Positions 8,064 to 24,868 of a stretch of DNA of 64,000 nt are shown one piece after another. The first letter of the stretch is position 1; every line of letters starts with the position of its first letter. This DNA comes from a candidate division WOR-3 bacterium (GTDB lineage: Bacteria > SDB-A). Position numbers and translations under genes: made by a program. The stretch covers positions 10,849-74,848 of the forward strand of contig JAFGON010000040.1 of the NCBI GenBank assembly GCA_016926475.1, in the 5' to 3' direction. The notes beneath the pieces are model-generated. The model searched no databases, was not told where the DNA came from, and saw nothing but the letters and a program-made list of their open reading frames with translations.

Positions 8064-8978
8064 ATGTTTATTTTTCAAATTTTTGCCGTTTTGCCCATGG
8101 TTTTGTCAGGAGCCGATTTCTCCGGACGCTGGCAGACGACATACGGCGTCATGATCTTGGAACAGGAAGGGCAAAAGGTGACTGGCGGTTATTTCTTCAA
8201 CGGATACTGCCCCATAGAAGGAGAGGTGAATTCCTGGGGCAGGCTCGTTTTCAGGTACAACGAGCCGACAACATCCGGCGAAGGCTGGTTTGAGCTCTCT
8301 TCGGACGGGGATTCTTTTACCGGAAAGTGGAGAGAAGATGGAAAATCTCTTTGGTATGATTGGAATGGCTGCAGAAACGGGCTGTCTCTCGACACTTCGA
8401 AGATCTGGCTCGTAGTCCTCGAGGCTGAATGGCAGGAAACTCTCGACGAAAACGACTATTCTTTCGGCGAGATGCTCGAGGCTTTTTTCTCCCGCCTTCC
8501 AGACATCGAAGTCAGGCAGAGGTATGTCCACGATAAAGACGACCTGAGAAATTTCTGCGCTGAAACAGCTGGTCTTGACGGAAGAGTCTGCCTTTTGTTC
8601 GCGACGCATGGCGAGAAAGACGGCCTCGTCCTCAGGGATGGAATAGCGGGAGCGGAGGATATAGTGAGAGTTTTGGAACCTTGCGGCAATTTAGTTCTCG
8701 TCCATTTCAGCTCTTGCAACATAATGTCGGGTGAAGCGCCGGACAGAATAATAAATTCCCGTGACGACTGGCCCGAAGGTTTTGTCGTATCGGGCTACCT
8801 CAACCCAGTGGATTGGGCAGGCAGCGCCGTTTTCGAATTTTTCTACCTGAATTTGATTTTTGAGCAGGGCCTGACGCCGAGGGAAGCCGCAAAGACCGCC
8901 GAGTATCTCTTCAGATTTTCCGGTGAAGAAACCATAGACGGAATCGACGGACTGGGTTTTGAGTGGAAAGAGCCCTGA
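8064..8978 (+). CDS. Hypothetical secreted protein
   Basis: Starts MFIFQIFAVLPMVLSGA (signal-peptide-like). Contains LLFATHGEKDG ... LVLVHFSSCN, which is reminiscent of a clan-CD His-Gly/Cys dyad; this is a weak resemblance. Confidence 0.45.
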   Translation: MFIFQIFAVLPMVLSGADFSGRWQTTYGVMILEQEGQKVTGGYFFNGYCPIEGEVNSWGRLVFRYNEPTTSGEGWFELSSDGDSFTGKWREDGKSLWYDWNGCRNGLSLDTSKIWLVVLEAEWQETLDENDYSFGEMLEAFFSRLPDIEVRQRYVHDKDDLRNFCAETAGLDGRVCLLFATHGEKDGLVLRDGIAGAEDIVRVLEPCGNLVLVHFSSCNIMSGEAPDRIINSRDDWPEGFVVSGYLNPVDWAGSAVFEFFYLNLIFEQGLTPREAAKTAEYLFRFSGEETIDGIDGLGFEWKEP

Positions 8979-11900
8979 TGGGGCACAATATCAACCTGAA
9001 GATTTACGAAGCTTCCGCGGGTTCCGGAAAGACGACGAAATTAGCCTCTGAATACATCACGCAGTTGTTCAAATCATTCAAGCCTTTGTTCAGAGACAAC
9101 AGCCCTGATAAGACCTACACCGACAAAAACCTCGAAGAGTTCAGAAAAACCCTGAGTTCAATATTGGCGGTGACTTTCACGAATTTGGCTTCCGAGCAGA
9201 TGGGGGAGAGAATTCTCGACTATCTCTATAAATTCCGCGAAATTGAAAACTACAAAACCGATGTAGTAGAAAAGGTTTTTCGGGAAGTCTCGGATAAATC
9301 CGGGGTAAGACCTGAAGACATAAAAAAATGGTCCTCATTTTTTCTCGATTTCATAATTACCTGTTATTCGGATTTCAAAGCGACCACAATAGATTCTTTC
9401 TCCGCCACACTTGTTAAAGTCCTCTCGCCCGAGATAGATGGAATCACTCCAGATTTTAAAATCAGAGAGAGCTTTGGAGAAAACTTAAAAGAGTTGATTC
9501 GCCGTTTTCTTGAAGACAAAGTCCGGGAAGACTGGCCAGAAGTCGAATTATCCCTGATAAACCTTTCCGAGATAGAGAGCAAGAACAATTATAACTACGA
9601 CAATTTGCTGACGGATAAAATCTACCAAATATTTGAAAAATTCAAAGACTTAAAAAAAATTGATGTCACAGAGTTGAACAAAGATTTGGATATGTTTTCA
9701 GAAGAAATCCAGAAAACTTCAGAACCACTTTTTGGATTCATTGAAAAGAACTCTGGCGGAATTAATAAGAAAAAAATCAGCGAAAATATTCTTGAAAAAT
9801 TGGGAGAACTCGGAAAAGCTAAAAAAAGAGAATTAAAATCAAAAGTACCTTTTTTTGCAGAAAAGACCATTTGCCGTGACAATTCACAGGATTTATTAAA
9901 CACCGGTTATAAAAATTTAGACTCTGAGTTTGAAGAATATTTAAAAGCTTTCAGATTTGCGGTTGGAAAGTTCGTCTTCTGCTTAAACAAACTCAAAATA
10001 GCCCATTTTGCCAATTTAACTGTAGAGTTTTCGGAGGTTTTTGACAGCAGAAAAAAAGACGTTGTGTATCTCTATGAAATATCGAATATTTTAAAAGAGA
10101 AACTGAACGTCGAATCGATGCCGTATTTATACTTAAAACTTTCCGAAAAATATTTGCGCTTTCTCATCGACGAATTTCAGGACACGAGTTCAAGACAACT
10201 GGATGTTCTCGTTCCCATAGCTTCAAACGCTATTCTATCCGAGAAGGACCAGAGCTCACTTTTCATAGTCGGAGACCAGAAGCAGGCCATATATTTCTGG
10301 CGCGGCGTCCAAATGGGGATGATGGACGAAGACAAAATTGTAAACGATTTTGAGCTAAAAGACGCCTTGGGCAAAAACAGGGGAAGTATAAAGAACAGCC
10401 TCGAATGCAATTTCCGCAGCGATAGAACGCTGGTCGAATTTTTCAACGATTTTTGGAAAAAGGAAAACATGGAAGGTTTGGACTCATACGCTTTGGAAAA
10501 AACTTTCGAAAAAAGCTTTGCGGATGTCAATCAAAAACCCGCGCGTCGAGACATGGTAAGCGGGTATGTAGAGATAAAAAAAATTGACGCACCAGACAAG
10601 GAGACGATATTCGAGGAAATTTTTATGACGGTGGAAAAGATAAAGGCGAAAGGATGGCGAGACGGAGACATAGCGATTCTTTTGAGAAACAAGAGCTATA
10701 TAAAGGATTTGTTTGATTTTTTGACGAAAAAAGGGCTTGAATGCATAACAGACGAATCAACGTATCTTTTGAGTTCACCTCTCGTGGCGGAGATTATTTC
10801 CTTTATGAAATTTTTGGATTTTCCGCCGGACGACCTCAGTTTTATTGAATTTGCCCGTAGCAACCTGCTGAAAAAAGCCGCTGAATCTGTGAACCTTGAT
10901 TACAAATATGAAGATTCCGTATATTTTAAAGCCGAGGGAAGTTTCTACACGATTTTCAGGGAGAAATATTTCCAGGTCTGGAAAATATTCGTCGAGCCCT
11001 TTTTCAATTCTGTGGGGTTCATGACAGCCTATGACGTTTATGAAGACATCATCTATAAGTTCAAGGTAGAGGAAAACTTTCCCGGAAGCTCTTTTTTTAC
11101 AATTAAATTGGGGGAGATCCTACACGACCTTGAAGTGTCAAACAAAACTTCGATATCTTCTTTTTTGTCTTTTATCTATGAAAACGGAGATAGCGAAGCC
11201 GACTTTAAAATCGACATTCCGAAAGATGAGGACAAAATTAAAATATCGACTATACACAGTTCCAAAGGGCTGGAATTCGAAAATGTAATTCTGGATGTCT
11301 CTGAAAAGCTGGTCAAAAGATTTGATGCAATCTACTCAACTGGAGGGCATCTTATTAAAATTCCCAAGGAAGAAGCCAAAGTAGATGTTTGTATGTTCAA
11401 AACTTACATTGAAGAGACTCGAAAAGGCAATACAGGCGAATTGAATTTGCTGTATGTGGCTATGACGAGAGCCAAACACGGATTGTTCATGATCGGCGAT
11501 AAAACAACAAAAAATGCCGAAAAAAAAATACCCGGAAAATTGATGAAATTTCAAGATATTGTATTTGCTAACAGATCAATCAAATTCGAAAATGACGTCT
11601 ACTCATCCGGAGAGATGAGCTTCAAAATTGAAAAGGATGAGAACAAAGAAAGCGTGGAGCTGACAAACGTGCCAAAGAGAAAAAGTGTAAACGAAATCAA
11701 GGACGCCTACCTTGTCTATGAATCAGGCAAAGCTAAGAGCGCCAGCCAGAAAAGAGGAGATGCTATCCACAACGCGCTTTCTCTTCTGGGGGTGTACAAA
11801 GATAAAAACGATTTTAAAAACGCCCTTTCGGAGGCTCTCGATTTGAATCTCCTGTCTGAAGAGGAGAGAAGACTCTTAGAAGATTTTTTTCTCGAAGAGA

Positions 11901-12172
11901 GTGTTGTAAAGTATTACGTCGGAGATTTTCCGGCTTTGAACGAAGCAGAATTCATTTCGGGTAGCGGCGATATAATGAGGCCCGACAGGATAGCCAAGAT
12001 GAGGGATTGTGTTTGGATAATAGACTACAAGACGGGAAAAGAGTACGAGTCAGAACACAGAAAACAGCTTGAGAAATACCGCGAAAACCTGAAAAAAGTT
12101 TACGCCGGATTAGAAATCAAGGCATGCCTTTTATACCTCGATAAAAAAGAAATGGTCTATGTCGAAAGTTGA
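8978..12172 (+). CDS. addA: AddA-like ATP-dependent helicase/nuclease (UvrD-type helicase with C-terminal RecB-family PD-(D/E)xK nuclease)
   Basis: Walker A KIYEASAGSGKTT, characteristic of AddA/UvrD. The C-terminal WIIDYKTGK is the RecB-type nuclease motif. The ATG overlaps the upstream stop (TGATG). Confidence 0.8.
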   Translation: MGHNINLKIYEASAGSGKTTKLASEYITQLFKSFKPLFRDNSPDKTYTDKNLEEFRKTLSSILAVTFTNLASEQMGERILDYLYKFREIENYKTDVVEKVFREVSDKSGVRPEDIKKWSSFFLDFIITCYSDFKATTIDSFSATLVKVLSPEIDGITPDFKIRESFGENLKELIRRFLEDKVREDWPEVELSLINLSEIESKNNYNYDNLLTDKIYQIFEKFKDLKKIDVTELNKDLDMFSEEIQKTSEPLFGFIEKNSGGINKKKISENILEKLGELGKAKKRELKSKVPFFAEKTICRDNSQDLLNTGYKNLDSEFEEYLKAFRFAVGKFVFCLNKLKIAHFANLTVEFSEVFDSRKKDVVYLYEISNILKEKLNVESMPYLYLKLSEKYLRFLIDEFQDTSSRQLDVLVPIASNAILSEKDQSSLFIVGDQKQAIYFWRGVQMGMMDEDKIVNDFELKDALGKNRGSIKNSLECNFRSDRTLVEFFNDFWKKENMEGLDSYALEKTFEKSFADVNQKPARRDMVSGYVEIKKIDAPDKETIFEEIFMTVEKIKAKGWRDGDIAILLRNKSYIKDLFDFLTKKGLECITDESTYLLSSPLVAEIISFMKFLDFPPDDLSFIEFARSNLLKKAAESVNLDYKYEDSVYFKAEGSFYTIFREKYFQVWKIFVEPFFNSVGFMTAYDVYEDIIYKFKVEENFPGSSFFTIKLGEILHDLEVSNKTSISSFLSFIYENGDSEADFKIDIPKDEDKIKISTIHSSKGLEFENVILDVSEKLVKRFDAIYSTGGHLIKIPKEEAKVDVCMFKTYIEETRKGNTGELNLLYVAMTRAKHGLFMIGDKTTKNAEKKIPGKLMKFQDIVFANRSIKFENDVYSSGEMSFKIEKDENKESVELTNVPKRKSVNEIKDAYLVYESGKAKSASQKRGDAIHNALSLLGVYKDKNDFKNALSEALDLNLLSEEERRLLEDFFLEESVVKYYVGDFPALNEAEFISGSGDIMRPDRIAKMRDCVWIIDYKTGKEYESEHRKQLEKYRENLKKVYAGLEIKACLLYLDKKEMVYVES

Positions 12173-15038
12173 AATTATCGATTTCGGAAAGAGTTTAATC
12201 GATCGAACGGCGGAAATCGCAATCGAAAACGATTTAAAAAATATTTTCATTTTGTATCCGTCAAAGAGGTTTGAAGTCTTTCTAAAAGAAGAGTTCAAAA
12301 AAAGGTTGAAAACCGTCCGTTTTCTGCCGAGGATGGACACGATAGACGAATTTGTGATGAGGCTCTACCAAATGAACCAGCCGGGCTTCAAAATCGCCTC
12401 TGAAATCGAAACTTCTTTTGTGCTATGGAAAACGCTCAAAGAAATTTCGCCGGATGGAATGTATTTGGGGAAAAAAGAGATTTCGAATTTCGTATCCTTT
12501 TATCCATGGGCTTTGAAACTGAAAAAATCTGTCGAGCAGATCCTCGTGGAGTCGGAAAATTTACCTGATCAAAACGCCGTCTATGAAAAATTCGTAGAGA
12601 TGGGCGAATATTTCAGGGAATACAGGGATTTTATAGCGAATTTGCCCCTTGTTGTAAACGCTTACGTCCAAGCGCACAACGAAATGAAGCTGTTCACGAG
12701 GGGTGTAGCTTACAGGGGTTTAACCGGAGAGAAGTGTCTTGATGTCTTGAAAGCTTGGGATTTGAAAAGTTTCGTGTTTTCAGGCTTCAACGCCTTGAAT
12801 TTCGCTGAAAAACTCCTTGTAGAAAACATTTTAAAAAATTTTGAGAATTCGATTTTTCTCGTCAGATATCAAAAACCGGATAAAACCGAGTCCCTATCTC
12901 CCTTCAGGACAATTTCCGAGACAGTCCGGAGTTTGAAGGGGGGGTTTAGAGCCGATGTCGGAAAGTCAGAGGTTTTCAGATATTCTGACATAGTGGATAA
13001 AACCGAGGTCTATTCTTCTTCTAACGTGGAGCACGAGATGATTCTCATGCATGACGTCCTTTTGGATTATCTCCAGACTAACAAGAGTTCACGTAGGATA
13101 GGCGTTTTGCTTCCGGAACCTTCTTCTCTTATACCTTTTGTCGAAAACGTATTGACCCGCGTCGACCCTGAAAACGCGGACATGAAATTCAACATAACAC
13201 TCGATTATCCTTTCCAGAGGACTCCGCTATTCCAGCTCCTGGACTCAATTCTTTTAATATCACAAAGTGTCGAAAATGGATTTATACCGACATCTTTATA
13301 CCTCGAGATGATAAGGCATCCTTATATAAAATTAGCCCAAAAATCAGAAAACACTGATTCTCAAAGGATACAGATACACAGGTTTGAGAGCCATGTGATA
13401 GACCTGAACGTCCTGGAACTCGAGCTTGGAGAAGACGGTGATTTTTTGAACATTAAAAATTTCAGCCAGAACTACGAGTATCTCAGGGGCATAAACCGCA
13501 GGTTTCTTCCGGGAAAAAACGAGAGTGTTTCCGATCTTTGCAGGCGTTTGTTGGATTGCCTACTCTTCATAAACCAGAGCCGCAATTCATACCTGTTCTT
13601 CAGAGATTTTTTGAATTCAGCCCAAATAATTCTCGACGAGGTCTTGGAATTCATTGAAAAACAACCCGATTTAGCGCATTTCAAAGATCCGCATAAAAAC
13701 GCCGATTTCATTAGATATCAGCTCTTGAACATACCCGTTCAATTCACAGGCACTCCGCTTGAGGGCATCCAGGTAATGGGGGCTCTGGAGTTCAGGAACC
13801 TCGATTTCGACGCCGTCTTTATTGCTGACTGCGTCGAAGGAATCATGCCTGACTCTTCGAAATACGACCCGGTACTACCCGGAGATATCAAAGAGATTTT
13901 CAAGCTTAGGTCGTATGGTGAATGGGAGAGCATATACGCTTCGAATTTGTTTTCAATTCTGCTTTCCAGTAAAACGGTGAAAATTTTTTACCCTGAGAAA
14001 ATGAGGGAGCAGAGAACAAAAAGGAGCAGGTTTATAGAGAAAATTTGTTTCAGCGACAAAAGGAGAGCGAAGCCAATCGTGAAAAAGATGAACTTTTCGA
14101 TATCGAAAACCGAAAAGATTCTTGAGGTCGAAAAGACAAAAGAAATCAAAGAAAAAATACTCCAAAGAGGGTTTTCTCCAAGCGCGTTTGAAGACTATAT
14201 ATCCTGCCCGATAAAATTTTATTTCAAGAGAATCCTGAATCTTGAAGAGAGGCAGACGCTGGAAGAAGAACCCGACGCCGCTGGAATAGGGACGATTGTC
14301 CACGAATCCTTAAGGGAATTCTACCAAGAAAGAAAAAACGTCAAAACACCGGAAGACATAACCGAGATACTGAAAAAAAACTTTATGGAACAAAACATTG
14401 AAGTTGAAAGCGGGTTGGGAAAAATAAAATTCTGGGGAGTTGATAGAAACCTGAAAAAATTTTTAAGCTGGGACATGGAGAATCAGAACAGAGAAGAAAT
14501 TGAAATTTTACAACTTGAAAAAGAGATAAAAGCGGATTTTGAATTTGAAGAGCAGACGGTTTCATTCAAGGGAAAAGTCGACCGAGTTGAAAAGGTAAAA
14601 GACGAATTGTTTATCTGCGACTACAAGACGAAAGAGAAAATTGTAAAATTGTTCCTCAAAAATTATTTGGAATTTGATGTCCCCCGACTAAAAGAGATCA
14701 CAGACCCTTGTCAATACAGAAAACATTTCAGAAATTTGTCCAATATGTGTAAATGTCATCAGGTAATGATTTATATCGAGATGTGGTCAAAGAATGAAAG
14801 TGAGCAAAAGGGAGAGCTAAACGGCAAATACTATTTTCTGAAAGAAAAAGACAAGGATGTCCAGAAAATTGTCTTGGAGAAAAGTAAAATTGAGTATCGT
14901 GAAAAATATTTGGAGATATTCAAAAGCTTCATGGATGATTTGCTTTTTGGCGACAAGTTTATAACGGTTCCCCATAAAGATGTTTGCATGTATTGCCCGT
15001 TTGAAAATCTCTGTCAAGTCGAAATAAGTCAAAATTAG
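12159..15038 (+). CDS. addB: AddB-like helicase-nuclease subunit (RecB-family nuclease with C-terminal Cys cluster)
   Basis: Overlaps addA by 14 nt. FICDYKTKEK nuclease motif near the C-terminus. Cys residues (CQYRK..., CMYCPFENLC) are consistent with the AddB Fe-S staple. It is large and follows addA directly. Confidence 0.6.
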   Translation: MSKVEIIDFGKSLIDRTAEIAIENDLKNIFILYPSKRFEVFLKEEFKKRLKTVRFLPRMDTIDEFVMRLYQMNQPGFKIASEIETSFVLWKTLKEISPDGMYLGKKEISNFVSFYPWALKLKKSVEQILVESENLPDQNAVYEKFVEMGEYFREYRDFIANLPLVVNAYVQAHNEMKLFTRGVAYRGLTGEKCLDVLKAWDLKSFVFSGFNALNFAEKLLVENILKNFENSIFLVRYQKPDKTESLSPFRTISETVRSLKGGFRADVGKSEVFRYSDIVDKTEVYSSSNVEHEMILMHDVLLDYLQTNKSSRRIGVLLPEPSSLIPFVENVLTRVDPENADMKFNITLDYPFQRTPLFQLLDSILLISQSVENGFIPTSLYLEMIRHPYIKLAQKSENTDSQRIQIHRFESHVIDLNVLELELGEDGDFLNIKNFSQNYEYLRGINRRFLPGKNESVSDLCRRLLDCLLFINQSRNSYLFFRDFLNSAQIILDEVLEFIEKQPDLAHFKDPHKNADFIRYQLLNIPVQFTGTPLEGIQVMGALEFRNLDFDAVFIADCVEGIMPDSSKYDPVLPGDIKEIFKLRSYGEWESIYASNLFSILLSSKTVKIFYPEKMREQRTKRSRFIEKICFSDKRRAKPIVKKMNFSISKTEKILEVEKTKEIKEKILQRGFSPSAFEDYISCPIKFYFKRILNLEERQTLEEEPDAAGIGTIVHESLREFYQERKNVKTPEDITEILKKNFMEQNIEVESGLGKIKFWGVDRNLKKFLSWDMENQNREEIEILQLEKEIKADFEFEEQTVSFKGKVDRVEKVKDELFICDYKTKEKIVKLFLKNYLEFDVPRLKEITDPCQYRKHFRNLSNMCKCHQVMIYIEMWSKNESEQKGELNGKYYFLKEKDKDVQKIVLEKSKIEYREKYLEIFKSFMDDLLFGDKFITVPHKDVCMYCPFENLCQVEISQN

Positions 15039-15074: not shown

Positions 15075-16487
15075 ATGTCTTCAGAATATTACGTTTCCAA
15101 TAAGTCTATTTCGGTCAGGCTTTTAGGCGAAAGCGACGCCCAGCTTTTTCAGCCTGACACAGGCTCTAAAATATATCTCAATCAGACCGGGCTTTTCATT
15201 TGGAAGTTACTCGACGGCGGTAATTCAAGGGTTGAAATTGTCAACGCTGTTCAGAATGAATTTGACGCTCCCGACAGCAAGGAACTCGACTCCGATATAG
15301 GGCAATTTCTGAGCGGTCTCGAAGAAAAGGGGTATGCCCATTCACGGAATTTTCTTAGAAGAGAACCCAGAAGCACCTATTTCATTCATGAAAATGAAGC
15401 GCCCAGGTCAATTGACATATCTGTTACGAAAAATTGCAACCTGAACTGCAAGTATTGTTTTTATCGCGAAGAGATGAAAAATAGGGAAGACCTGCCCCTT
15501 TCGGAATGGGAGAAGTTTTTGGAGGAGCTTAAAAGCCTTGCGGTCGAAGAAGTCGTGCTGAGTGGTGGAGAGGTTTTTTGCAGAAAAGATCTCTGGGATT
15601 TCATCGATTTGATCGTGGAAAGCAACCTCAGGTATTCGTTTCTTTCAAACGGAACGTTGTTCGACGATTCTGTTCTCAGCGAGCTCGAGAAGGATGGGCG
15701 TAAAAAGAGGCTATCGAGCATACAAATCTCAATAGACGGTTCAAAGGCGGAAGTTCACGATATGTCGAGAGGGAAAGGAAGTTTTGAAAAGGCTGTAAGG
15801 GGTCTGAAAAACGCCATGGGTGCCGGATTAAACGTCACGGTGAGGTTGACGGTAAACAGACACAACCTCGGCGACCTCGAAGAAGCCGCGAAATTCCTGC
15901 TGGTCGATATCGGACTTCCATCTTTCAGCACCAACGACGCGATTCCTCTCGGGGCGGCGTGCTGGAACAAAGACACGATAACACTCGATCCTTTAATGCA
16001 GTTTGAGGCGATGAAAACCCTCGGAAAACTTCAAAAACAATATGACAACAGAATCACGGCGATGGCAGGGCCTTTGGCGAAATGGCATCTTTACCGAAAG
16101 ATGGAGAGGATGAAAAGGCAAGGCGAAAAACCAGAGCCCTGGATGGGATATTTGACGGGATGCGGATGTCCTTTCAGCAAATTGGCAGTTCACCACGACG
16201 GTGTATTTATTCCATGCAATATGCTCTCGAAAATTGAACTTGGCCAGATGAACAAAGATTCTCTGAAAGATGTTTGGATCAACAGCCCTATTTTGAAGAG
16301 GATGAGGGAGAGGCGAAGAGTGCCTATGAAAGAAGTCCCGGGCTGTGAAAACTGCGAGTACAATTTGTATTGCAACGGCAGCTGTCCAGCTTTGGCCGGA
16401 GTGACTGCTGAAAATTTTATCCTTCCAAACCTCTTCGACTGTTACAAGAAATTCAAAGAAGATACAGGCCGGAATCTTGACGAATAA
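15075..16487 (+). CDS. Radical SAM/SPASM peptide maturase with N-terminal PqqD-like RiPP recognition element
   Basis: The N-terminal ~90 aa (KIYLNQTGLFIWKLLDGGNSRVEIVNAVQNEFD...FLSGLEEKGY) match the PqqD/RRE fold signature. CNLNCKYCF is the CxxxCxxC radical-SAM cluster. The C-terminus has a Cys-rich SPASM-type region (GCGCPFSK...IPCNML...CENCEYNLYCNGSCPA). Confidence 0.85.
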   Translation: MSSEYYVSNKSISVRLLGESDAQLFQPDTGSKIYLNQTGLFIWKLLDGGNSRVEIVNAVQNEFDAPDSKELDSDIGQFLSGLEEKGYAHSRNFLRREPRSTYFIHENEAPRSIDISVTKNCNLNCKYCFYREEMKNREDLPLSEWEKFLEELKSLAVEEVVLSGGEVFCRKDLWDFIDLIVESNLRYSFLSNGTLFDDSVLSELEKDGRKKRLSSIQISIDGSKAEVHDMSRGKGSFEKAVRGLKNAMGAGLNVTVRLTVNRHNLGDLEEAAKFLLVDIGLPSFSTNDAIPLGAACWNKDTITLDPLMQFEAMKTLGKLQKQYDNRITAMAGPLAKWHLYRKMERMKRQGEKPEPWMGYLTGCGCPFSKLAVHHDGVFIPCNMLSKIELGQMNKDSLKDVWINSPILKRMRERRRVPMKEVPGCENCEYNLYCNGSCPALAGVTAENFILPNLFDCYKKFKEDTGRNLDE

Positions 16488-17535
16488 GTTTTACCCTCTT
16501 AAAACGATCTACATGTATCTGATGGGCAGCTGCAACCTAAAATGCAGACATTGCTGGATTGACCCGGATTTTGTGGATGTCCCGCAGAAATACTTGACTT
16601 GGACTGAAATTAAGAGGATCTACCAGGAAGCAAAAATAATAGGCCTGTCTTCAGTTAAATTGACCGGGGGGGAACCTTTCCTTCATCCTGAAATTCTCCA
16701 GATAATAACTGGAATAAAAGAACTCGGACTTGGTTTGACCATAGAGACAAACGGTACTTTGTTGGATGATGAGAGAGTGCATGCGCTGAAAAAACACGCG
16801 AATTTCGTCGCCATTTCCATAGACGGCGCTGAACCCAACAGTCATGAAGACCTTAGGGGTGTCGAAGGCTCTTTTGACGCAGTCTTAAAAGGCGCGGGAC
16901 TGCTAAAAAAAGAAGGCTTGGGGTTTCAAGTCATATTTTCTCTCTACAGGAAAAATCTCCGGGATCTTTTTTTGATGCCCAGCTTTGTCGAAGGAATAGG
17001 AGGCGCAAGCCTCAAGGTAAATCCGATCAACGTCGTAGCGAGATCTGAAAAAATGGAAAGAGACGGAGAACTGTTTTCTGTAGAAGAAATTTTAGAAATA
17101 AAAAATGATTTTGACCGTATATCAAAAAAATCAAAACTGACGATAACATTCGATGTGCCTGCCGCTTTTCATAGTCTTGAGCACATTTCGAAACAGGGAT
17201 TTGGAACGTGCGGAATCCTGACTATTTTGGGGATACTCAGCGACGGAACGGCGAGTATCTGCGGCATAGGATCGGTTAAAAAAGAACTCGATTTCGGAAA
17301 TTGCCTCGACCGAGGAATTGAGAATATATGGCGTGAAAATGACACTCTGAATATGCTCAGAGAGAATATACCTCATAACCTGCAGGGTGTATGCATGAGG
17401 TGTGTCCACAAGCATTACTGCCTGGGCAAGTGCGTAGCGGAAACATACGCCAGAACGGGCAGTTTTTTGTCAGGTTATTATTTCTGCCAGATAGCTCAGG
17501 AAAAAGGACTTTTCCCCCCTACGCGACTTTTATGA
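16477..17535 (+). CDS. Second radical SAM/SPASM-domain protein (no RRE)
   Basis: GSCNLKCRHCWI is a CxxxCxxC motif. GGEPFLHPE is a glycine-rich SAM motif. C-terminal Cys clusters (GTCGIL...ICGIG, CMRCVHKHYCLGKCVA). Overlaps the upstream gene by 11 nt and the downstream gene by ATGA. Confidence 0.8.
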   Translation: MTNKFYPLKTIYMYLMGSCNLKCRHCWIDPDFVDVPQKYLTWTEIKRIYQEAKIIGLSSVKLTGGEPFLHPEILQIITGIKELGLGLTIETNGTLLDDERVHALKKHANFVAISIDGAEPNSHEDLRGVEGSFDAVLKGAGLLKKEGLGFQVIFSLYRKNLRDLFLMPSFVEGIGGASLKVNPINVVARSEKMERDGELFSVEEILEIKNDFDRISKKSKLTITFDVPAAFHSLEHISKQGFGTCGILTILGILSDGTASICGIGSVKKELDFGNCLDRGIENIWRENDTLNMLRENIPHNLQGVCMRCVHKHYCLGKCVAETYARTGSFLSGYYFCQIAQEKGLFPPTRLL

Positions 17536-18404
17536 AAGACAAGCCATCATCGGATATAGCGGTTTTTGTGCTATCGGGAGAAAGTATGAAACCGCTTATG
17601 AAGACCGGCGATGTTTTCATGGCTTCAAAAGTTTTTCCGGAGAAATTGAAATACGGCGACATAGTCGTCTTTGAAAAAAATGGAAAACTCGTATCTCACT
17701 CAATCATCAAAGTGAAAAGAGAAGGAACGGATATCAAAGTCTTGACAAAGGGTTTGAACAGAAACGAGGACGACGGATGGACAGATGGGGATGTTTTGAA
17801 ATTCGAAGTCGAAGCCCTGAAAAAGGGGAAACATTTTTTGGGTTTAAACCGGACAAAAAAGACATTTTATTGTGCGTTGGCGCCGTTGAGGAAAAAAATC
17901 CGCAACTGTCTTTTTGAGTTTTCTGTTAAAATTTCGCCACTGTTTCGATTTATGATGAAAAAAGGGCTGATAAAGGTAAAAAAAATTATGTCTCAAGACG
18001 AAGAATTAGTGGTATTATGGGACAGAAGTGTTTTGAAAAGAAGGGGCGATAATAGAGAAATACACCCCTTTTTTAGAAAAGGCGCGGTGAAAGAAGAGGA
18101 TTTAATGGAGTCTGCAGAAAAACAAGGCAAGACAGGTAACGTTTATATGAACCCTGATCTGGTTTTCAGAATTGAGGGAGACGAGGGTCTTGTATATAAT
18201 GTGAAAACAGGTGATTTTAGAATAATAAACGAGACGGGTTGCGCGATTTTAAAACTCGCCAACGGAAACTTCGACAAGAAAGGAATAATAGACCTTATAC
18301 TTGAAGAATACGAATCAAAGGACCAAGAAGAGATGATGGTAAAAGAGGTGGGTGAATTTATTGACGATTTATCAAAACGAGATATAATAAGATTGATTGA
18401 TTGA
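17532..18404 (+). CDS. Soluble SipW/S26-like (clan SF) serine peptidase fused to a C-terminal PqqD-like RRE domain
   Basis: SGESMKPLMKTGDVF is SPase box B with a Ser nucleophile. YGDIVVF, VSHSIIKV and TKGLNRNEDDG parallel the SipW-type HRV/TKGDNN boxes. There is no N-terminal TM anchor. The C-terminal LVYNVKTGDFRIINETGCAILKLANGNFDKKGIIDLILEEYE is PqqD-like. Confidence 0.65.
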   Translation: MKDKPSSDIAVFVLSGESMKPLMKTGDVFMASKVFPEKLKYGDIVVFEKNGKLVSHSIIKVKREGTDIKVLTKGLNRNEDDGWTDGDVLKFEVEALKKGKHFLGLNRTKKTFYCALAPLRKKIRNCLFEFSVKISPLFRFMMKKGLIKVKKIMSQDEELVVLWDRSVLKRRGDNREIHPFFRKGAVKEEDLMESAEKQGKTGNVYMNPDLVFRIEGDEGLVYNVKTGDFRIINETGCAILKLANGNFDKKGIIDLILEEYESKDQEEMMVKEVGEFIDDLSKRDIIRLID

Positions 18405-18423: not shown

Positions 18424-18720
18424 ATGAAAAAGAAATACATAAAACCTTCTATTTTAGATTTTAAACCAAGGGTTGCCCAGGGAAATCTTTTTTCGGGAAC
18501 CAACACCAGCAGCCCGGAAGGCGGCTGTACAGCTGGTTCAGCGGCTGATTATTGCAATTATGGACAAATGGCGACCGGTTTTTCTGATTGCGCCAACGGT
18601 TCTGGCGCTATGGACTGCACGCAGGGCGCTTTGGCGAGTGGAAATCTATGCGCCACGGGCACGAACGCGACAGGAGGCGGAGGAGGATTTTGCGCTTCAG
18701 GGTCAAGCCCTCTCGCTTGA
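18424..18720 (+). CDS. Putative RiPP precursor peptide A1 (Cys-rich, Gly/Ser/Ala/Thr-rich core)
   Basis: 98 aa. Strong RBS (tggggg). Leader MKKKYIKPSILDF..LFS..SPEG, then a core with 7 Cys at ~9-13-residue spacing and GGGGGF. It is paralogous to 19750..20040. Confidence 0.6.
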   Translation: MKKKYIKPSILDFKPRVAQGNLFSGTNTSSPEGGCTAGSAADYCNYGQMATGFSDCANGSGAMDCTQGALASGNLCATGTNATGGGGGFCASGSSPLA

Positions 18721-18746: not shown

Positions 18747-19559
18747 TTGAATGAATTAAAGATCAAAATAGGTTCCATATCTCTGAAATTACGGTCAAAA
18801 GAGCGTATCGGCTTTTTTTCTGATTTGTTTGAATACTTTAAGACAAAAGATGAATGTCTATATGACACTGAGATCGTTTTTTGGGATTGTGAAGACATCC
18901 TCGACTGCATAAAGAAGAAAATTTTTTGGGTGAAAGACAACATAAAATCCGCCAGAAATACTATTCACATGATTTCTTCTTTCGGATTTAAGACAATTGT
19001 TGACGAAGACCAGGGCAAGATATTTATTTTTTCCCCCCAGGAATACAAAGCCAAGGCTTTGAGGGTTTCTGTGGGCTTTTTTTGCTGGAAAATGTTTCCC
19101 AAAGACAAATATCTTTTTTTTCATGCCGCGTCCTGTAAGTTCTCAGAAAACAGCTATCTCTTTCCGGCGAACAGCGGCAAAGGCAAGACCACTTTGAGTG
19201 AAAACGCAATAAAATGCGGCGAGGTATTCAACGACGAGTTTTCTCTCGTCGAGATTACCACAGACGGATATGTTCTTCATGGCACACCTTTCGGGCAGGT
19301 GACGAGCGGACCGATTTTGGGTCAACTAAAAAAAATATTCTTTCTCGAAAAAAGCGAAAAAAACGACTTCAAGAGGATTACGCCCGTCGAATCAATGAAA
19401 ATTGCTTGGGAGGACAACCTATACAGAACAGGGATAACCAATTCCGAAGAGAGAAAATTGGTGTTCAACGAAATTTTGGATATTTTCGAAAATATTCCAT
19501 GTTTTGAGATGAATGTGAGAAAAGATTTCAACGATTTTAAACTACTCGAGAATTTATAG
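18747..19559 (+). CDS. HPr kinase C-terminal-domain-like P-loop protein (putative precursor-peptide Ser kinase)
   Basis: FFHAASCKF...ANSGKGKTTLSEN is a P-loop G-x-S-G-x-GK-T/S as in HprK/lasso-peptide kinases. It is ~270 aa and sits between the two precursor genes. Confidence 0.55.
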   Translation: MNELKIKIGSISLKLRSKERIGFFSDLFEYFKTKDECLYDTEIVFWDCEDILDCIKKKIFWVKDNIKSARNTIHMISSFGFKTIVDEDQGKIFIFSPQEYKAKALRVSVGFFCWKMFPKDKYLFFHAASCKFSENSYLFPANSGKGKTTLSENAIKCGEVFNDEFSLVEITTDGYVLHGTPFGQVTSGPILGQLKKIFFLEKSEKNDFKRITPVESMKIAWEDNLYRTGITNSEERKLVFNEILDIFENIPCFEMNVRKDFNDFKLLENL

Positions 19560-19749: not shown

Positions 19750-20040
19750 ATGGGGAAAAAGAAGTATATTAAACCTCAAATAAGGTGTTTTGAAGCAATC
19801 ACGGCATATTCACAGCTTTTTTCGAATGAATCACCTGAAGGGGTTTGCACCATAGGCACCGTTGCAAACGCCTGTCAGGAAGGGGGAAGTGCGTCCGGAG
19901 GTCCAGGACAGTGCCTTTCCGGCTCGACTGCCAATTTTGACTGCCTCACTGGGAGTTATGCGCAGGGTTCGGTATGCTCCAACGGAGACCACGCGGCAAA
20001 TCAAGGCGGACAATGTAAAGTGGGTATGAGTCCAAAATAA
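19750..20040 (+). CDS. Putative RiPP precursor peptide A2 (paralogue of A1)
   Basis: 96 aa. Leader MGKKKYIKPQI..F....QLFSNESPEG. The core has 7 Cys, 6 of them alignable to A1, and a C-terminal GMSPK. Confidence 0.6.
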   Translation: MGKKKYIKPQIRCFEAITAYSQLFSNESPEGVCTIGTVANACQEGGSASGGPGQCLSGSTANFDCLTGSYAQGSVCSNGDHAANQGGQCKVGMSPK

Positions 20041-20855: not shown

Positions 20856-21510
20856 AAGGATACAGGAAAGGCTTGTTTCACGGGTCAAGATCAAGCCTTT
20901 GAAAAGCGGAATTAGATATGTCGCAGGTCTTGACTGCGCCGTGACGAAAGACAAAATTGTCGGCGAAGCCGTTCTTATGAGTTATCCCGAACTTCAAATG
21001 GAGGAGGAAAAATTCAGCTTCAGAGAGCTCAGTTTTCCCTATGTCCCGGGTTTTCTCTCGTTCAGAGAAATGCCGGCTCTCATTTCTGCCTACCTCAAAC
21101 TGTCGAGAAAACCAGATATGATTATTGTCGACGGGCAGGGAATTCTTCATCCCCGCGGTATGGGTCTGGCAAGCCATTTGGGTGTAATACTCAACAAACC
21201 TTCAATAGGCTGTGCGAAGAGTCTTTTGTGCGGGGAATATGAAGAACCTTCTTTTAGAAGAGGATCTAAAAGCCCGGTGTTTTTGAATGAAAAGATTATG
21301 GGTTATGCCCTGAGGACGAGAGACGGGGTCAAGCCCGTCATTGTATCTCCCGGACATCTCATTACTCCACTGCAGGCGCAAAAACTTGTCCTAGAAATGT
21401 CTTTTTTCAGGCTTCCGGAACCCGTCAGGCTGGCCGACAAGTATTCAAGGGAGAATAAAAAGTATTCTTCGCAGAATAGTAAGGTTTTGGTCGAAAATAA
21501 TGATTTTTGA
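20827..21510 (+). CDS. nfi: Endonuclease V
   Basis: VAGLDCAV...SFPYVPGFLSFREMPALI...MIIVDGQGILHPRGMGLASHLGVILNKPSIGCAKS are the canonical Nfi motifs. TTG start. Confidence 0.75.
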   Translation: MTELDYSDLKRIQERLVSRVKIKPLKSGIRYVAGLDCAVTKDKIVGEAVLMSYPELQMEEEKFSFRELSFPYVPGFLSFREMPALISAYLKLSRKPDMIIVDGQGILHPRGMGLASHLGVILNKPSIGCAKSLLCGEYEEPSFRRGSKSPVFLNEKIMGYALRTRDGVKPVIVSPGHLITPLQAQKLVLEMSFFRLPEPVRLADKYSRENKKYSSQNSKVLVENNDF

Positions 21511-24500
21511 AAAAATTGACGGATTGATTGGAAAATTATCTGAGTCTGACGCACGGTCGAAGGAAAAGCAATTCCGCCTTGTAGCTGGAGACAGGAGAGA
21601 CGTAGCTGTTTTATTCGCCGATATACACGGTTTCACATCAATTTCGGAAAAACTCGACCCGGAGAAAGTCAAAATTTTGGCTGATAAACTAATGCAGATT
21701 CTGTCTTTCTGCGTCAAAAATTACGGGGGCTTCGTCGATAAATACGAAGGTGACAGAATCATGGCGCTGTTCGGCGCAAAAAAAGCTAGCGACAAAGACG
21801 CGGAAAAAGCAGTCAGAGCAGCTATCGATATGATAGAAAAAATCACTCTTTTGGCAAAAATATTCAAGGAGGACGAGGAATTTAAAGAATTCGACCTTTC
21901 GATGAGAATAGGAATAAACTACGGACTTGTGACGACAGGAAGAATTGGAGAAAAAAGAGAAGGGGATTTCACCGTGTACGGCGACACGGTCAACATAGCT
22001 TCGAGGCTGGAGGAAAAGTCTCCGTTAAATTCGATTTTGGTTTCATCGTCGGTCAGGGAATCCCTAAAACAGATCTTTGAATTTGACCCGTTTGGAGATC
22101 TCGAACTCAAGGGGAAAATCCAGAAGGTAGAGGCTTGGATTGCCAAAAAATACAAAACGAAGAAAACATTGATGGCCGATGACGACAGTCTGTTTTTAGG
22201 AAGAGAAAACGAAATAACAGAGACAACCAGAATAATCAATTCGGCGCTCAACAGAGCAGTATCTACAAAGGACGCCAATTATTTGAGCCTCGGTTTCATA
22301 ACCGGAGAGCCGGGGATAGGGAAAACGAGACTATTAGGGGAAATTTTAAAGTTGTTCCAGGGCAGGGCAGAGTTTTTTTGGGGGAGTTGTGATTCACTGA
22401 AGGTATCGAGATTCGGAGTGATAGAGGAAATGGTTAAAGAGCGGCTCGGCGTGGCGAGAGAAGATGAAAAGAATGCGATCGTCTCAAAAATATCCCAATG
22501 GGCGTTCTCAAACAAAGCGGGTGAGGATCTTAGAAACAATTTGATTGATTTGTACGCGTGCGCAGGCAATCCTTACAACTCGGAGGGAAGAGATGAAAGC
22601 AGGTTTGTTTTCGCAAGGCAGGTTTTTATCGAATTTTTCAAAACAATCGGGTCAAAAGCCTCGGAAAATTCGAAACCAGTAATAATAGCTATAGATGATT
22701 TTCAAGAAGCGGATGAAATTGAAGTATCCTTTCTCGAGTGTTTTCTGGAAGCTTTAAGACATAAAGATGAAAAATTGGTTTTCTCTACCTTCGTTATCCT
22801 TATTGCTTCGAGAAAAGACATCGAAACTGATTTTGGAGCTTCGGGGATTTTGCAAAACAGAATTCGACTATTGCCTCTTTCATCAGAAAACTCAATGAAA
22901 TTACTCGATGGTGTACTGCGCGATGAAAACATTGAGGAGCGCCTGAAATCCTTCATCATCGAGAGAGCGCAGGGTAACCCTCTTTTTATTACAGAGCTGA
23001 GCAAAATAGCCAAAAAAAGAGGAGGAGAGAACCTGTCTGTTAGCGATATCCCTTCTTCCATGAAGTCTCTTATGCTTTCAAGGCTCGATTGTTTAGATGA
23101 AAATTTAAAAGAACCTCTGAAAATCCTCACGGTTTCAGGTGAAAAGATAGAAATAGACATATCTGAATACGTTCTTCGCAGATTTGAAATAGACCCGGAA
23201 TTCTTGATTTCTCGACTCGAGAGTGAAAAGGTCATTTATGAGTATGAAAAAGAAATTTATCGATTCTCGAGTTTATTTTTCAGGGAAATTATCTACGAGA
23301 CTTTTTTGGTCGAAAACAGAAGAATAGTCCACGCTGAATACGCAAAAGCTTTGGAAGACAAAAGAAAACATTCAATCGATAACTACATATCCGAAATCTG
23401 CGGGCACTATTTGGAGACGGATGACGATGAGAAAATAATCGAATACTTGGAAAAAAATGGAAAGCTGCTTAAAGAAAGGTTCGACAACAAAAGCGCCCTT
23501 GAGATTTTTTTAAAACTTGATAGCATGCTTTCGAAAAAGTATTTAGAAAACGCATCGTCTGCATTCGCTTACGCAGAATGCCTTTTGAATATGTCTGAAA
23601 TTTTAAACATTGCCGGAGATTGGGAGTTATCGGAAAAGAAAACAATTCTCTCATTGAGTATAATTGGAGAAAAAAACCTGGAAAGTCTCAAGGGACGGGC
23701 CTTTTTATGCCTTGCGAGAGCATACCTGAATTTAAACAGGTTAAAAGACGCAGAACATGCAGTTGAGAGATCTTTGGCCTATTCTAAAAAATTAAAGAAC
23801 ACCAGCGTAATGATCTCTTCGATGATGCTGAAAGGAGAACTGTATATTTTGTTTTCGGATTATAAGTCCGCCGCGAAATGTTTCAAGAGCATTGAAAAGA
23901 AATCAAAGACCGCCGGCGACGAAAAAGGACTTATGATGTCTTTCTTCAATTTAGCGCATGTTTACATCAAAAAGAGCAAGTTTAAAAAATCGCTCGAGTA
24001 CAATTTGATGGCTTTGAAAATTGCCGAAGACATTTCGGACAAATTGAGCATAGTGAGAATTCTCAACAACATAGGTATCGGTTACAGAAATATCGGGGAA
24101 TTTGACAAAGCATTTAGAGCTTATCAAAAGAGCTTGAAACTCGCCGTGGAAATGGGCAGTAAAAAAAATATCGCTACAGCCTATGGAAATTTATCCATTC
24201 TCTACATGCAAAAAGGCGAGATGAACGAATACGTGAGATTTTTAAGAAAGCATTTTTTGTTGAATTTTGAATTGAATGATAAAATGGGGATGGCTTATTC
24301 GTTGGCAAATTTCGGAAATTACCACAATTATTCAGGCAACCTGCGGGAAGCTGAACTCAGTTACAAAAAAGGTCTTTCTATAGCTAAGATTTTCAAAAAC
24401 AAAGTTCTCGCAATGAACCTCGCTTACAACCTATCTACTGTCTATATGGCTCAAAAAGACAACAGCAAAGCACTTAAATTCTCGGAGATTTCTTACAAAA

Positions 24501-24868
24501 CAGCAGACGAAATAGGAAACTTCAACTGGAAATTTCTAACGAGAGCCATAGGGTTGAGGATAGAATTCAACGCGGCAAAAAGTCTGGTGGAAAAAAATAC
24601 AGTTTTGAAAAAAACCGAAGAAATGCTCAAAGATTACAAAACAAAAGATACAAGGGCTGAAATATTATACCGAATCTGGGAATTCACTATGGAATATTCG
24701 GAGTTGGCGGCAAAGAGAAGACAAATAATAGAAACATACAGAAATGAAGCGATCAAGCTCTTCGCGGAATTGCTTAAGAAAGAAAAAAAGAGCGATTATT
24801 CAGATAAACTTGAAAACCTGACAAACGGCTTTATAACAAAAAGAGGGAGCAGATTCAGTATTCATTGA
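21500..24868 (+). CDS. Class III adenylate/guanylate cyclase fused to a STAND-type AAA ATPase and C-terminal TPR repeats
   Basis: VAVLFADIHGFTSISEKL...YGDTVNIASRLE is the cyclase catalytic core. GFITGEPGIGKTRLL is the Walker A. The C-terminal half is made of TPR-like units. Confidence 0.8.
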   Translation: MIFEKIDGLIGKLSESDARSKEKQFRLVAGDRRDVAVLFADIHGFTSISEKLDPEKVKILADKLMQILSFCVKNYGGFVDKYEGDRIMALFGAKKASDKDAEKAVRAAIDMIEKITLLAKIFKEDEEFKEFDLSMRIGINYGLVTTGRIGEKREGDFTVYGDTVNIASRLEEKSPLNSILVSSSVRESLKQIFEFDPFGDLELKGKIQKVEAWIAKKYKTKKTLMADDDSLFLGRENEITETTRIINSALNRAVSTKDANYLSLGFITGEPGIGKTRLLGEILKLFQGRAEFFWGSCDSLKVSRFGVIEEMVKERLGVAREDEKNAIVSKISQWAFSNKAGEDLRNNLIDLYACAGNPYNSEGRDESRFVFARQVFIEFFKTIGSKASENSKPVIIAIDDFQEADEIEVSFLECFLEALRHKDEKLVFSTFVILIASRKDIETDFGASGILQNRIRLLPLSSENSMKLLDGVLRDENIEERLKSFIIERAQGNPLFITELSKIAKKRGGENLSVSDIPSSMKSLMLSRLDCLDENLKEPLKILTVSGEKIEIDISEYVLRRFEIDPEFLISRLESEKVIYEYEKEIYRFSSLFFREIIYETFLVENRRIVHAEYAKALEDKRKHSIDNYISEICGHYLETDDDEKIIEYLEKNGKLLKERFDNKSALEIFLKLDSMLSKKYLENASSAFAYAECLLNMSEILNIAGDWELSEKKTILSLSIIGEKNLESLKGRAFLCLARAYLNLNRLKDAEHAVERSLAYSKKLKNTSVMISSMMLKGELYILFSDYKSAAKCFKSIEKKSKTAGDEKGLMMSFFNLAHVYIKKSKFKKSLEYNLMALKIAEDISDKLSIVRILNNIGIGYRNIGEFDKAFRAYQKSLKLAVEMGSKKNIATAYGNLSILYMQKGEMNEYVRFLRKHFLLNFELNDKMGMAYSLANFGNYHNYSGNLREAELSYKKGLSIAKIFKNKVLAMNLAYNLSTVYMAQKDNSKALKFSEISYKTADEIGNFNWKFLTRAIGLRIEFNAAKSLVEKNTVLKKTEEMLKDYKTKDTRAEILYRIWEFTMEYSELAAKRRQIIETYRNEAIKLFAELLKKEKKSDYSDKLENLTNGFITKRGSRFSIH

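Follow-up and report, generated by a model that had tools for sequence, protein, structure and literature searches.

The cassette and its precursor peptides

The window, a stretch of 64,000 nucleotides from a candidate division WOR-3 bacterium, carries a cassette of genes that resembles the SynChlorMet type of radical SAM cassette. The ScmD position of this cassette is occupied by a single ORF in which an S26B-like peptidase is fused to a PqqD-type RiPP recognition element (RRE). The genes are arranged as follows.

15075 to 16487, + strand: ScmE-like radical SAM/SPASM maturase that itself carries a PqqD domain at the N terminus (TIGR04250, 376.4 bits, cutoff 400; PqqD, 48.5 bits)
16477 to 17535, + strand: RRE-less ScmF-like radical SAM/SPASM maturase (TIGR04251, 324.8 bits, cutoff 400)
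17532 to 18404, + strand: S26B-like peptidase::PqqD/RRE fusion gene (290 aa)
18424 to 18720, + strand: precursor peptide A1 (98 aa), with YIKPSIL as its leader motif, six CxxGxxA repeats, and a PEG motif
18747 to 19559, + strand: ScmC-like P-loop protein (SGKGKTT; weak matches to HprK_rel_A at 1.3e-4 and ScmC at 2.3e-3)
19750 to 20040, + strand: precursor peptide A2 (96 aa) with a YIKPQI leader motif

The ATG start codon of the fusion gene shares bases with the stop codon that ends the preceding radical SAM gene (ATGA), indicating translational coupling. NCBI holds a record for an identical 290-aa protein named 'signal peptidase I [candidate division WOR-3 bacterium]', and this is the name that S26::RRE proteins lacking a transmembrane helix currently receive by automatic annotation. 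The family is rare, with only four close homologues among 5.8 billion clusters. A frameshift or an assembly artefact was rejected as the origin of the fusion, since the fusion recurs across independent assemblies and divergent lineages.

The best family matches of the two radical SAM proteins are ScmE and ScmF, and ScmD and ScmC are among the weak matches of the PqqD-containing and P-loop proteins (14 bits with a cutoff of 100, and 17.3 bits with a cutoff of 125, respectively). All four proteins score below the curated cutoffs, and therefore we describe the cassette as SCM-like rather than as an equivalog. It differs from SynChlorMet in that the S26::PqqD fusion stands in for ScmD and that the ScmE-like enzyme has an extra N-terminal RRE, which is 24% identical to the RRE of the peptidase. 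Because the SynChlorMet family set (TIGR04248-04251) is limited to ScmC, ScmD, ScmE, and ScmF, there is no peptidase among its named members. A literature search on SynChlorMet gave no match, and the names of the Scm genes matched nothing but unrelated acronyms.

The ScmC-like protein is possibly a kinase of the HprK/PEPCK fold, as suggested by weak HprK_rel_A and PEPCK matches. Its orthologues carry a weak precomputed assignment to PF27840 (ScmC), and the protein itself found no match in a PDB sequence search or in a Pfam search. No NTP-transferase was found among the cassette genes, and no exporter adjoins the cassette in the window. An alignment of eight precursor sequences from five loci reveals that M1, K4, Y5, P8, and I10 are invariant, giving the leader motif Y-x-x-P-x-I. 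The RiPP setting that had been proposed in a sequence-only reading of this DNA holds, with two radical SAM/SPASM genes, precursors with YxxPxI leaders, and a ScmC-like P-loop gene around the fusion gene.

A signal-peptidase-type catalytic domain joined to an RRE

The fusion protein can be divided into four consecutive regions, the first of which contains the catalytic residues.

17532 to 17843, + strand: signal-peptidase-fold catalytic domain (aa 1-104)
17583 to 17585, 17697 to 17699, and 17772 to 17774, + strand: codons for the catalytic residues Ser18, His56, and Asp81
17844 to 17969, + strand: basic helical segment (aa 105-146), defined by AF2 helices (107-133 and 135-143), hydropathy, and charge
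17970 to 18140, + strand: middle beta-rich region (aa 147-203; AF2 strands 149-177, pLDDT 72-81)
18141 to 18401, + strand: PqqD-type RRE (aa 204-290)

The sequence motifs listed in the sequence-only reading (SGESMKP, GDIVVF, SHSIIKV, TKGLNRNEDDG, and the C-terminal LVYNVKTGDFRIINETGC) are all present in this ORF as described. Its assignment of the N-terminal half to the S26 peptidases holds: residues 7-84 match TIGR02228 (sigpep_I_arch, the NCBIfam archaeal-type signal peptidase I) at 57.8 bits (E 1.2e-15), which exceeds the curated cutoff of 51.85 bits. The Pfam S24 and S26 models give matches below their gathering scores. A PDB profile search retrieves SEC11C (2.8e-9) and SEC11A (4.6e-8), and alignment to human SEC11A/C recovers a complete triad in which S18, H56, and D81 correspond to SEC11A residues S56, H96, and D122, whose roles have been reported (bioRxiv 10.1101/2020.11.11.378711). 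A self-cleaving S24 domain of the LexA/UmuD type was also considered and discarded, since a His at the Sec11/SipW position, and not a Lys, is the general base.

The triad is highly conserved among aligned relatives (Ser in 80/80, His in 83/83, and Asp in 73/82). All 12 fusion proteins have H56 and D81, and S18 is missing solely from the N-terminally truncated P0006, even though the mutual identity of these proteins is just 22-48%. The earlier assignment of SipW-type His and Asp boxes is correct for H56 and D81 but needs revision for a structural salt bridge, which joins the Arg that follows the catalytic His to the 'GD' Asp in box E. The fusion protein has S57 and L75 at these positions, where 77/83 relatives have R and 79/84 have D, respectively. 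Both substitutions are confined to four WOR-3 sequences, in which the Arg is replaced by S, T, or C and the GD Asp by Leu. Judged by its sequence, box E of the WOR-3 clade is atypical, with the catalytic Asp D81 retained nonetheless. Loss of the salt bridge could weaken the fold in this clade; mutants of SEC11A D116 are still active (bioRxiv 10.1101/2020.11.11.378711).

The C-terminal half matches the Pfam PqqD model (PF05402) at 31 bits over residues 220-286, which passes the gathering score of 23.4. An AF2 model of the fusion protein built with an alignment of 116 sequences reaches a pLDDT of 88.4, compared with 55.7 when only the four close homologues are used. In this model, the peptidase half adopts a signal peptidase/LexA-like beta fold, whereas the RRE half forms a winged-helix RRE fold of three strands and three helices. 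The model superposes on the lasso peptide RRE TbiB1 (2.0 A over 84/84 residues), in agreement with the PqqD/RRE identity proposed earlier, and also on SipA, LepB, and SEC11. A phmmer search with the middle region (aa 147-203) returned the WOR-3 orthologues and one weak match, and similarity to this region is essentially confined to the WOR-3 clade.

As the sequence-only reading had recognized, there is no N-terminal transmembrane helix. The best 19-residue Kyte-Doolittle (KD) mean in the entire fusion protein is 0.70, compared with a transmembrane threshold of about 1.6. Ser18 is preceded by merely 17 residues, which are modelled as coil or strand (mean pLDDT of 63 for residues 1-10). In the absence of a transmembrane anchor or signal sequence, the active site would face the cytoplasm. 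The basic segment at residues 105-146 occupies the site of a more hydrophobic C-terminal helix in relatives. The equivalent helical segment reaches KD values of up to 1.4-1.5 in orthologues, and the C-terminal helices of discrete peptidase relatives reach 1.6-1.9. With a maximum KD of 0.70 and 11 K/R against a single D/E in 42 residues (net charge +10), this segment in the window protein is not a transmembrane helix, but it could permit peripheral membrane binding.

Related cassettes and known leader peptidases

The arrangement seen in the window is common to four WOR-3 orthologous loci. A more distant cassette with unrelated flanks (L007) encodes ScmE, ScmF, an S26::PqqD fusion, a precursor with a YIKP motif, a ScmC-like protein, and an MsbA-like exporter found only at this locus. 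Its ScmE scores 409.9 bits, which is over the equivalog cutoff of 400, and the PqqD part of its fusion orthologue is ScmD-like (47.7 bits). At a high-GC locus, also with unrelated flanks (L009), a ScmF-like gene with 41% identity lies directly 5' of a fused S26::PqqD gene. Two other loci (L010 and L012) carry a discrete PqqD gene that overlaps a discrete gene for an S26-like protein without a transmembrane helix, and proteins with the orders PqqD-S26-PqqD and PqqD-S26 are also known. The metagenome contigs that carry related loci are short (1.3-4 kb). In every cassette examined, an S26-like peptidase adjoins or is fused to an RRE. Together, the split genes and the several fusion orders provide independent genomic evidence that the peptidase and the RRE form a working unit.

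The SipW, Sec11, and archaeal signal peptidase I enzymes (MEROPS S26B) share their fold, boxes B to E, and catalytic triad with the fusion protein. However, the fusion protein lacks the transmembrane anchor, carries Ser and Leu in place of the box D Arg and box E Asp, and has gained a leader-binding domain. It presumably acts on a RiPP leader in the cytoplasm, whereas S26B enzymes act on signal peptides. A member of family S26 that is soluble, without a transmembrane helix, is SodX (TIGR02754), the NiSOD maturation protease, which cleaves off an N-terminal propeptide within the cytoplasm. SodX differs in lacking an RRE and in acting outside RiPP biosynthesis. The fusion protein does not match the TIGR02754 model, although a discrete relative (P0017) does so weakly.

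Lasso peptide systems provide another comparison. The B1 proteins (such as TbiB1 and TfuB1) have the same RRE fold, and the YxxP leader motif is likewise shared. In lasso systems, as proposed here, an RRE presents the leader to a protease, and each system occurs as separate and as fused proteins. The protease in our system is a clan SF serine peptidase, whereas lasso B2 is a cysteine protease with a transglutaminase fold, and there is no lasso cyclase in the cassette.

The closest functional parallel is the leader peptidase of the linear polyphosphorylated peptides of Bacillota. LppS (WP_029196374.1), a SipW-like signal peptidase, cleaves YxxP leaders solely in the presence of the discrete RRE protein LppB (Popov et al., Nat Commun, May 2026, PMC13381572). 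The same study found that LppS is poorly soluble, that its S29A, H68A, and D93A mutants are inactive, that it docks on the sheet formed by LppB and the leader through an N-terminal alpha1 helix, and that its substrate leader has Y at -16, V at -11, and L at -10. This is the earliest report of signal-peptidase-type leader peptidases, and it concerns one RiPP family in one phylum. The sequence-only reading did not recognize its architecture from characterized RiPP pathways. A precedent now exists in LppS and LppB, which have been characterized as separate proteins (PMC13381572).

When LppS is set beside the fusion protein by its published description rather than by its sequence, both are ER/archaeal-type S26 enzymes with Ser, His, and Asp residues, both are paired with a PqqD-type RRE, and the His-to-Asp spacing is equal (H68-D93 and H56-D81, +25 in each). 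Both are accompanied by precursors with Y-x-x-P-x-(V/I)-(L) leaders, with the Tyr 16 residues before the cut as known for LppS and as predicted here. Both clusters have a P-loop gene of the HprK-like/ScmC-like kind, which in the window is a tentative assignment, and the L007 relative adds an MsbA-like exporter. A SipW-type triad peptidase and a PqqD RRE are paired within a RiPP cluster, as a fusion in the window and as discrete proteins in L010 and L012.

In contrast to the two-protein LppS/LppB system, the peptidase and RRE reside here on one chain, with the RRE at the C terminus. There is no alpha1 docking helix, since the chain ahead of Ser18 is just 17 residues long and forms strand or coil in the model. 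The window cluster further differs in having two radical SAM/SPASM maturases, no NTP-transferase, and Cys-rich cores, and its host belongs to candidate division WOR-3 rather than to Bacillota. The concept of an RRE-dependent SipW-like leader peptidase is therefore already precedented, and what is new is the covalent fusion, the lack of an N-terminal docking helix, the uncharacterized SynChlorMet-like radical SAM RiPP class, and the WOR-3 host.

A proposed RRE-guided leader peptidase

Given these characteristics, we propose that the fusion protein serves a SynChlorMet-like radical SAM RiPP pathway as its single-chain, RRE-guided leader peptidase, with a probability of roughly 75%. The role of cytoplasmic leader peptidase is supported by the conservation of the cassette across contexts, by the adjacent PqqD and S26 pairs, and by the YxxP motif of the precursors. 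The C-terminal PqqD/RRE domain would bind the N-terminal Y-x-x-P-x-I of A1 and A2 by beta-strand addition, as lasso B1 and LppB do. The tethered S26B-type domain might then use Ser18, His56, and Asp81 to cleave the leader some 16 residues past the Tyr, at a site with small residues at -3 and -1 (A-x-G/S/A | Q/N). By analogy with the spacing in LppA, the cut is predicted to follow VAQG20 in A1, and the predicted site in A2 follows TAYS21. All eight aligned precursors have A or L at -3 and G, S, or A at -1 of the predicted site, although the predicted spacing fits the L012 precursors poorly. Cleavage would be cytoplasmic, and it probably occurs after the two radical SAM/SPASM enzymes, perhaps together with the ScmC-like P-loop protein, have modified the Cys-rich core, in which the CxxGxxA cysteines are expected to become thioethers.

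Leader removal is the least understood step in many RiPP pathways. These findings assign candidate precursors and a candidate protease to a SynChlorMet-type cassette, and extend the peptidase-plus-RRE partnership beyond Bacillota into an uncharacterized radical SAM pathway. We see even chances that S26B leader peptidases are not a speciality of Bacillota and their polyphosphorylated peptides, but are the standard leader proteases of an uncharacterized, phylum-spanning class of radical SAM Cys-rich peptides with SynChlorMet-like enzymes, YxxP leaders, and CxxGxxA cores. In that case, the fused protein would be a self-sufficient protease, addressed by the leader motif and independent of any partner protein, and thereby a compact tool for leader removal. 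It would likewise be a natural 'Rosetta stone' for the interaction between LppS and LppB.

The NCBI name and the score above the TIGR02228 cutoff would fit a housekeeping type I signal peptidase. However, an enzyme whose active site would be cytoplasmic, which is fused to an RRE, resides in a radical SAM cassette, and belongs to so rare a family has almost no chance of serving this role. It is also very improbable that the protein is a catalytically dead chaperone with a signal peptidase fold that merely holds the precursor, like SipA of S. pyogenes. SipA itself lacks the catalytic Ser, His, and Asp residues, whereas the fusion proteins strictly retain all three despite their divergence.

Two further alternatives are unlikely, though less so than these. 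The leader peptidase might be attached to the membrane by basic or hydrophobic helices that follow the catalytic domain, with cleavage coupled to export. The hydrophobic C-terminal helices of the discrete relatives, the +10 charge of segment 105-146, the MsbA-like exporter adjoining in L007, and the poor solubility of LppS (PMC13381572) are consistent with such a model, but the hydropathy and charge of this segment in the window protein are not those of a transmembrane helix, and the window has no adjoining exporter. About equally doubtful is the possibility that the PqqD domain mainly does the job of ScmD by presenting the precursor to ScmF and perhaps ScmC, leaving the S26 domain to trim a follower, process another protein, or provide immunity. 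The location of the gene at the ScmD position of split cassettes and the ScmD-like PqqD part in relatives such as L007 favor this model. Moreover, ScmF has no RRE of its own, and therefore the maturases may depend on the fused RRE, in addition to or in place of the peptidase. Yet an S26-like peptidase accompanies the RRE in every cassette examined, and the same pairing in LppS/LppB performs leader cleavage (PMC13381572). The presenting and leader-cleaving roles are, in addition, mutually compatible.

Domain structure and catalytic residues of the S26::PqqD protein

The region at 17532-18404 (+) encodes one uninterrupted ORF of 290 amino acids, whose ATG overlaps the TGA of the preceding radical SAM (rSAM) gene (ATGA). 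NCBI holds an identical protein labelled 'signal peptidase I [candidate division WOR-3 bacterium]', and across 5.8 billion protein clusters no more than three further close homologues turned up, at 45-48% identity. The sequence-only reading had proposed a signal-peptidase-type protease joined to a PqqD-like RiPP recognition element (RRE), and every motif that it quoted is found in the ORF. Both domains score above model cutoffs: residues 7-84 match TIGR02228 (archaeal/ER-type signal peptidase I) with 57.8 bits (curated cutoff 51.85), and residues 220-286 match Pfam PqqD with 31 bits (cutoff 23.4). Models for SipW and bacterial signal peptidase I give weaker matches than TIGR02228, and the Pfam S24 and S26 models score below threshold.

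A PDB search with a profile of four close homologues retrieved human SEC11C (E 2.8e-9) and SEC11A (E 4.6e-8), with Ser, His and Asp aligned. AlphaFold2 (AF2) modelling was poor with a four-sequence alignment (pLDDT 55.7) and reached a pLDDT of 88.4 (pTM 0.65) with 116 relatives drawn from an exhaustive HMMER search. Two helices (residues 107-143; 11 Lys/Arg versus 1 Asp/Glu) separate the peptidase and RRE folds, and are followed by a small beta region (residues 149-177) whose sequence is essentially confined to the WOR-3 clade. By HMM and fold, the C-terminal half is a bona fide PqqD-type RRE.

S18, H56 and D81 pair with SEC11A residues S56, H96 and D122, which form the catalytic triad in the human signal peptidase complex (SPC) structure (bioRxiv 10.1101/2020.11.11.378711). 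In the 116-sequence alignment, the catalytic columns hold Ser in 80/80, His in 83/83 and Asp in 73/82 sequences. H56 and D81 are kept in all 12 fusion proteins despite just 22-48% identity to the WOR-3 protein, as is S18 except in the N-terminally truncated homologue P0006. Because the general base is a His at the Sec11/SipW position, the enzyme is of the S26B type; an S24 (LexA-type) Ser-Lys enzyme is ruled out on the same ground. Two further positions are unusual:

17700-17702 (+): S57, at the position of the Arg that follows the catalytic His
17754-17756 (+): L75, at the position of the 'GD' Asp of box E

In the human SPC, D116-R97 is a structural salt bridge whose loss cuts stability, not activity (bioRxiv 10.1101/2020.11.11.378711). 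Both partners are replaced (R57 by S/T/C, D75 by L) only in the four WOR-3 sequences of the 116-sequence alignment; the two positions have changed in concert, with the triad retained.

The predicted lack of an N-terminal membrane anchor also holds. Only 17 residues precede Ser18, and no transmembrane (TM) helix is found in the protein, whose highest 19-residue Kyte-Doolittle (KD) mean is 0.70 versus about 1.6 for a TM helix. The protein agrees with S26B members in sequence, triad and fold, and departs from them in its missing TM anchor and Arg/Asp salt bridge; its NCBI label, 'signal peptidase I', gives the wrong impression. Discrete relatives likewise lack an N-terminal TM helix, and often carry a more hydrophobic helix past the catalytic domain (KD up to about 1.8-1.9). 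Thus, the basic helices of the fusion protein may make peripheral membrane contact.

Gene neighborhood and recurrence of the cassette

The genes in the window are arranged in the following order.

Upstream part: AddAB-like helicase/nuclease, ScmE-like rSAM/SPASM protein with its own N-terminal PqqD domain, ScmF-like rSAM/SPASM protein
From the fusion gene on: S26::PqqD, precursor A1, ScmC-like P-loop protein, precursor A2, DUF402 protein, endonuclease V

The cassette scores under all four NCBIfam equivalog cutoffs for the SynChlorMet (SCM) families, and is SCM-like. The orthologous loci L001-L006 keep this gene order, flanks included, and the L006 protein has 45% identity to the fusion protein in a locus syntenic with the WOR-3 loci. 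More informative than this synteny is the recurrence of the cassette in different flanks (L007 and L009). The L007 homologue has 30% identity, and the ScmE of this locus passes the equivalog cutoff (409.9 bits).

L007 gene order: histidine kinase (upstream flank), then ScmE, ScmF, S26::PqqD, 78-aa YIKP precursor, ScmC-like gene, MsbA-like ABC exporter

On the high-GC contig of L009, a fused S26::PqqD gene lies immediately downstream of a ScmF-like gene (41% identity, E 4e-72). Loci L010 and L012 carry the same rSAM and ScmC-like genes, with a discrete PqqD gene (84-110 aa) overlapping a discrete TM-less S26-like gene (157-166 aa), and L013 matches the L012 layout as far as its contig end. The exhaustive search also recovered the orders PqqD-S26-PqqD, PqqD-S26 with a long C-terminal region, and tandem PqqD-PqqD (P0021, P0023, P0018 and P0012). 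The occurrence of both split genes and several fusion orders is classic evidence for joint action of the S26 and PqqD modules.

The ScmE-like PqqD domain (15075-15398) has 24% identity to the RRE of the fusion protein. The window cassette therefore has two fused RREs, as against one discrete ScmD together with a ScmE that lacks an RRE in cassettes of the L010/L012 type. Upstream lies an AddAB-like helicase/nuclease pair (8963-15038; UvrD-helicase and PDDEXK_1 domains in orthologues), and downstream an adenylate/guanylate cyclase of 1122 aa that carries TPR repeats (21500-24868); these flanking genes are syntenic in orthologous loci. Both are missing around L007, and thus are probably not members of the cassette.

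The MAG contigs of L006 and L007 are both titled 'uncultured Desulfuromonadaceae bacterium', and the taxonomy given for these binned assemblies does not look reliable. In L005 (JAFGIG010000016.1), protein P0004, named 'PqqD family peptide modification chaperone', starts at the Met right after the catalytic Ser. Since tblastn matches residues 12-289 of the fusion protein at this locus, the annotated start codon is probably wrong, hiding part of the peptidase half.

Candidate precursors and predicted leader cleavage

Candidate precursor genes are found at the following positions.

18424-18720 (+): A1
19750-20040 (+): A2
L007:10596-10832: L007 candidate
L012:1269-1493: L012 candidate
L013:1259-1483: L013 candidate

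In A1, A2 and their homologues, M1, K4, Y5, P8 and I10 are invariant (M-KKK-Y-I-K-P-x-I). The leader is followed by a PEG motif and then six C-x2-G-x2-A repeats at intervals of 9-11 residues, within cores rich in Gly, Ser, Ala and Thr. Pfam and NCBIfam models give no match to these peptides. The peptides are nominated as candidates for an SCM-like cassette; by the TIGRFAM text, no SynChlorMet precursor or substrate is known to have been identified.

Lasso B1 RREs and LppB bind a Y-x-x-P-x-(hydrophobic) motif, and LppA carries Tyr at -16, V-11, L-10, F-3, E-2 and T-1 around its cut (PMC13381572). The same Tyr -16 spacing, which does not suit the L012 precursors neatly, would place the cut after VAQG20 in A1 and after TAYS21 in A2. 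At the predicted site, all eight aligned precursors have A/L at -3, G/S/A at -1 and Q/N/Y at P1'. Type I signal peptidases prefer small residues at -3 and -1, which the predicted site would fit.

Comparison with LppS and LppB

The sequence-only reading did not recognize this architecture from characterized RiPP pathways, a view overtaken by a 2026 precedent involving two separate proteins. Popov et al. (Nat Commun, 20 May 2026; PMC13381572) report that SipW homologues ('archaeal-type signal peptidase I') co-localize with discrete RREs in Bacillota, and state that such peptidases were previously undescribed in RiPP pathways. LppS cuts the LppA leader only in the presence of the RRE LppB and is inactivated by each of the mutations S29A, H68A and D93A, and its N-terminal alpha1 helix docks on LppB (PMC13381572). 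Our literature search found no other paper tying SipW-type enzymes to RiPP leaders, and nothing on the SynChlorMet cassette.

By analogy, the fusion protein probably works likewise. Its RRE would bind the YxxP leader, and the tethered S26B domain would cleave about 16 residues downstream via Ser18-His56-Asp81. Cleavage would take place in the cytoplasm, probably once the Cys-rich core has been modified by the rSAM enzymes. ScmF has no RRE, and so the fused RRE may additionally serve the maturases in trans. The leader-peptidase reading is supported, with catalysis predicted from sequence and from the LppS analogy.

However, the fusion itself, the docking element, the partner enzymes and the phylum set the two systems apart. 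AF2 models no helix like LppS alpha1 ahead of Ser18, and the covalent tether would stand in for this docking. Although the LppS/LppB report reduces the novelty of the protein, the natural fusions corroborate the RRE-peptidase partnership and would extend SpI-type leader peptidases beyond Bacillota and the linear polyphosphorylated peptide (LPP) family, into an uncharacterized rSAM RiPP class. The LPP core also includes an HprK-like kinase and an MsbA-like exporter (PMC13381572). The kinase is paralleled in the window by the ScmC-like protein (18747-19559), which has a P-loop (SGKGKTT) and weak similarity only to HprK-related kinase A, ScmC and PEPCK.
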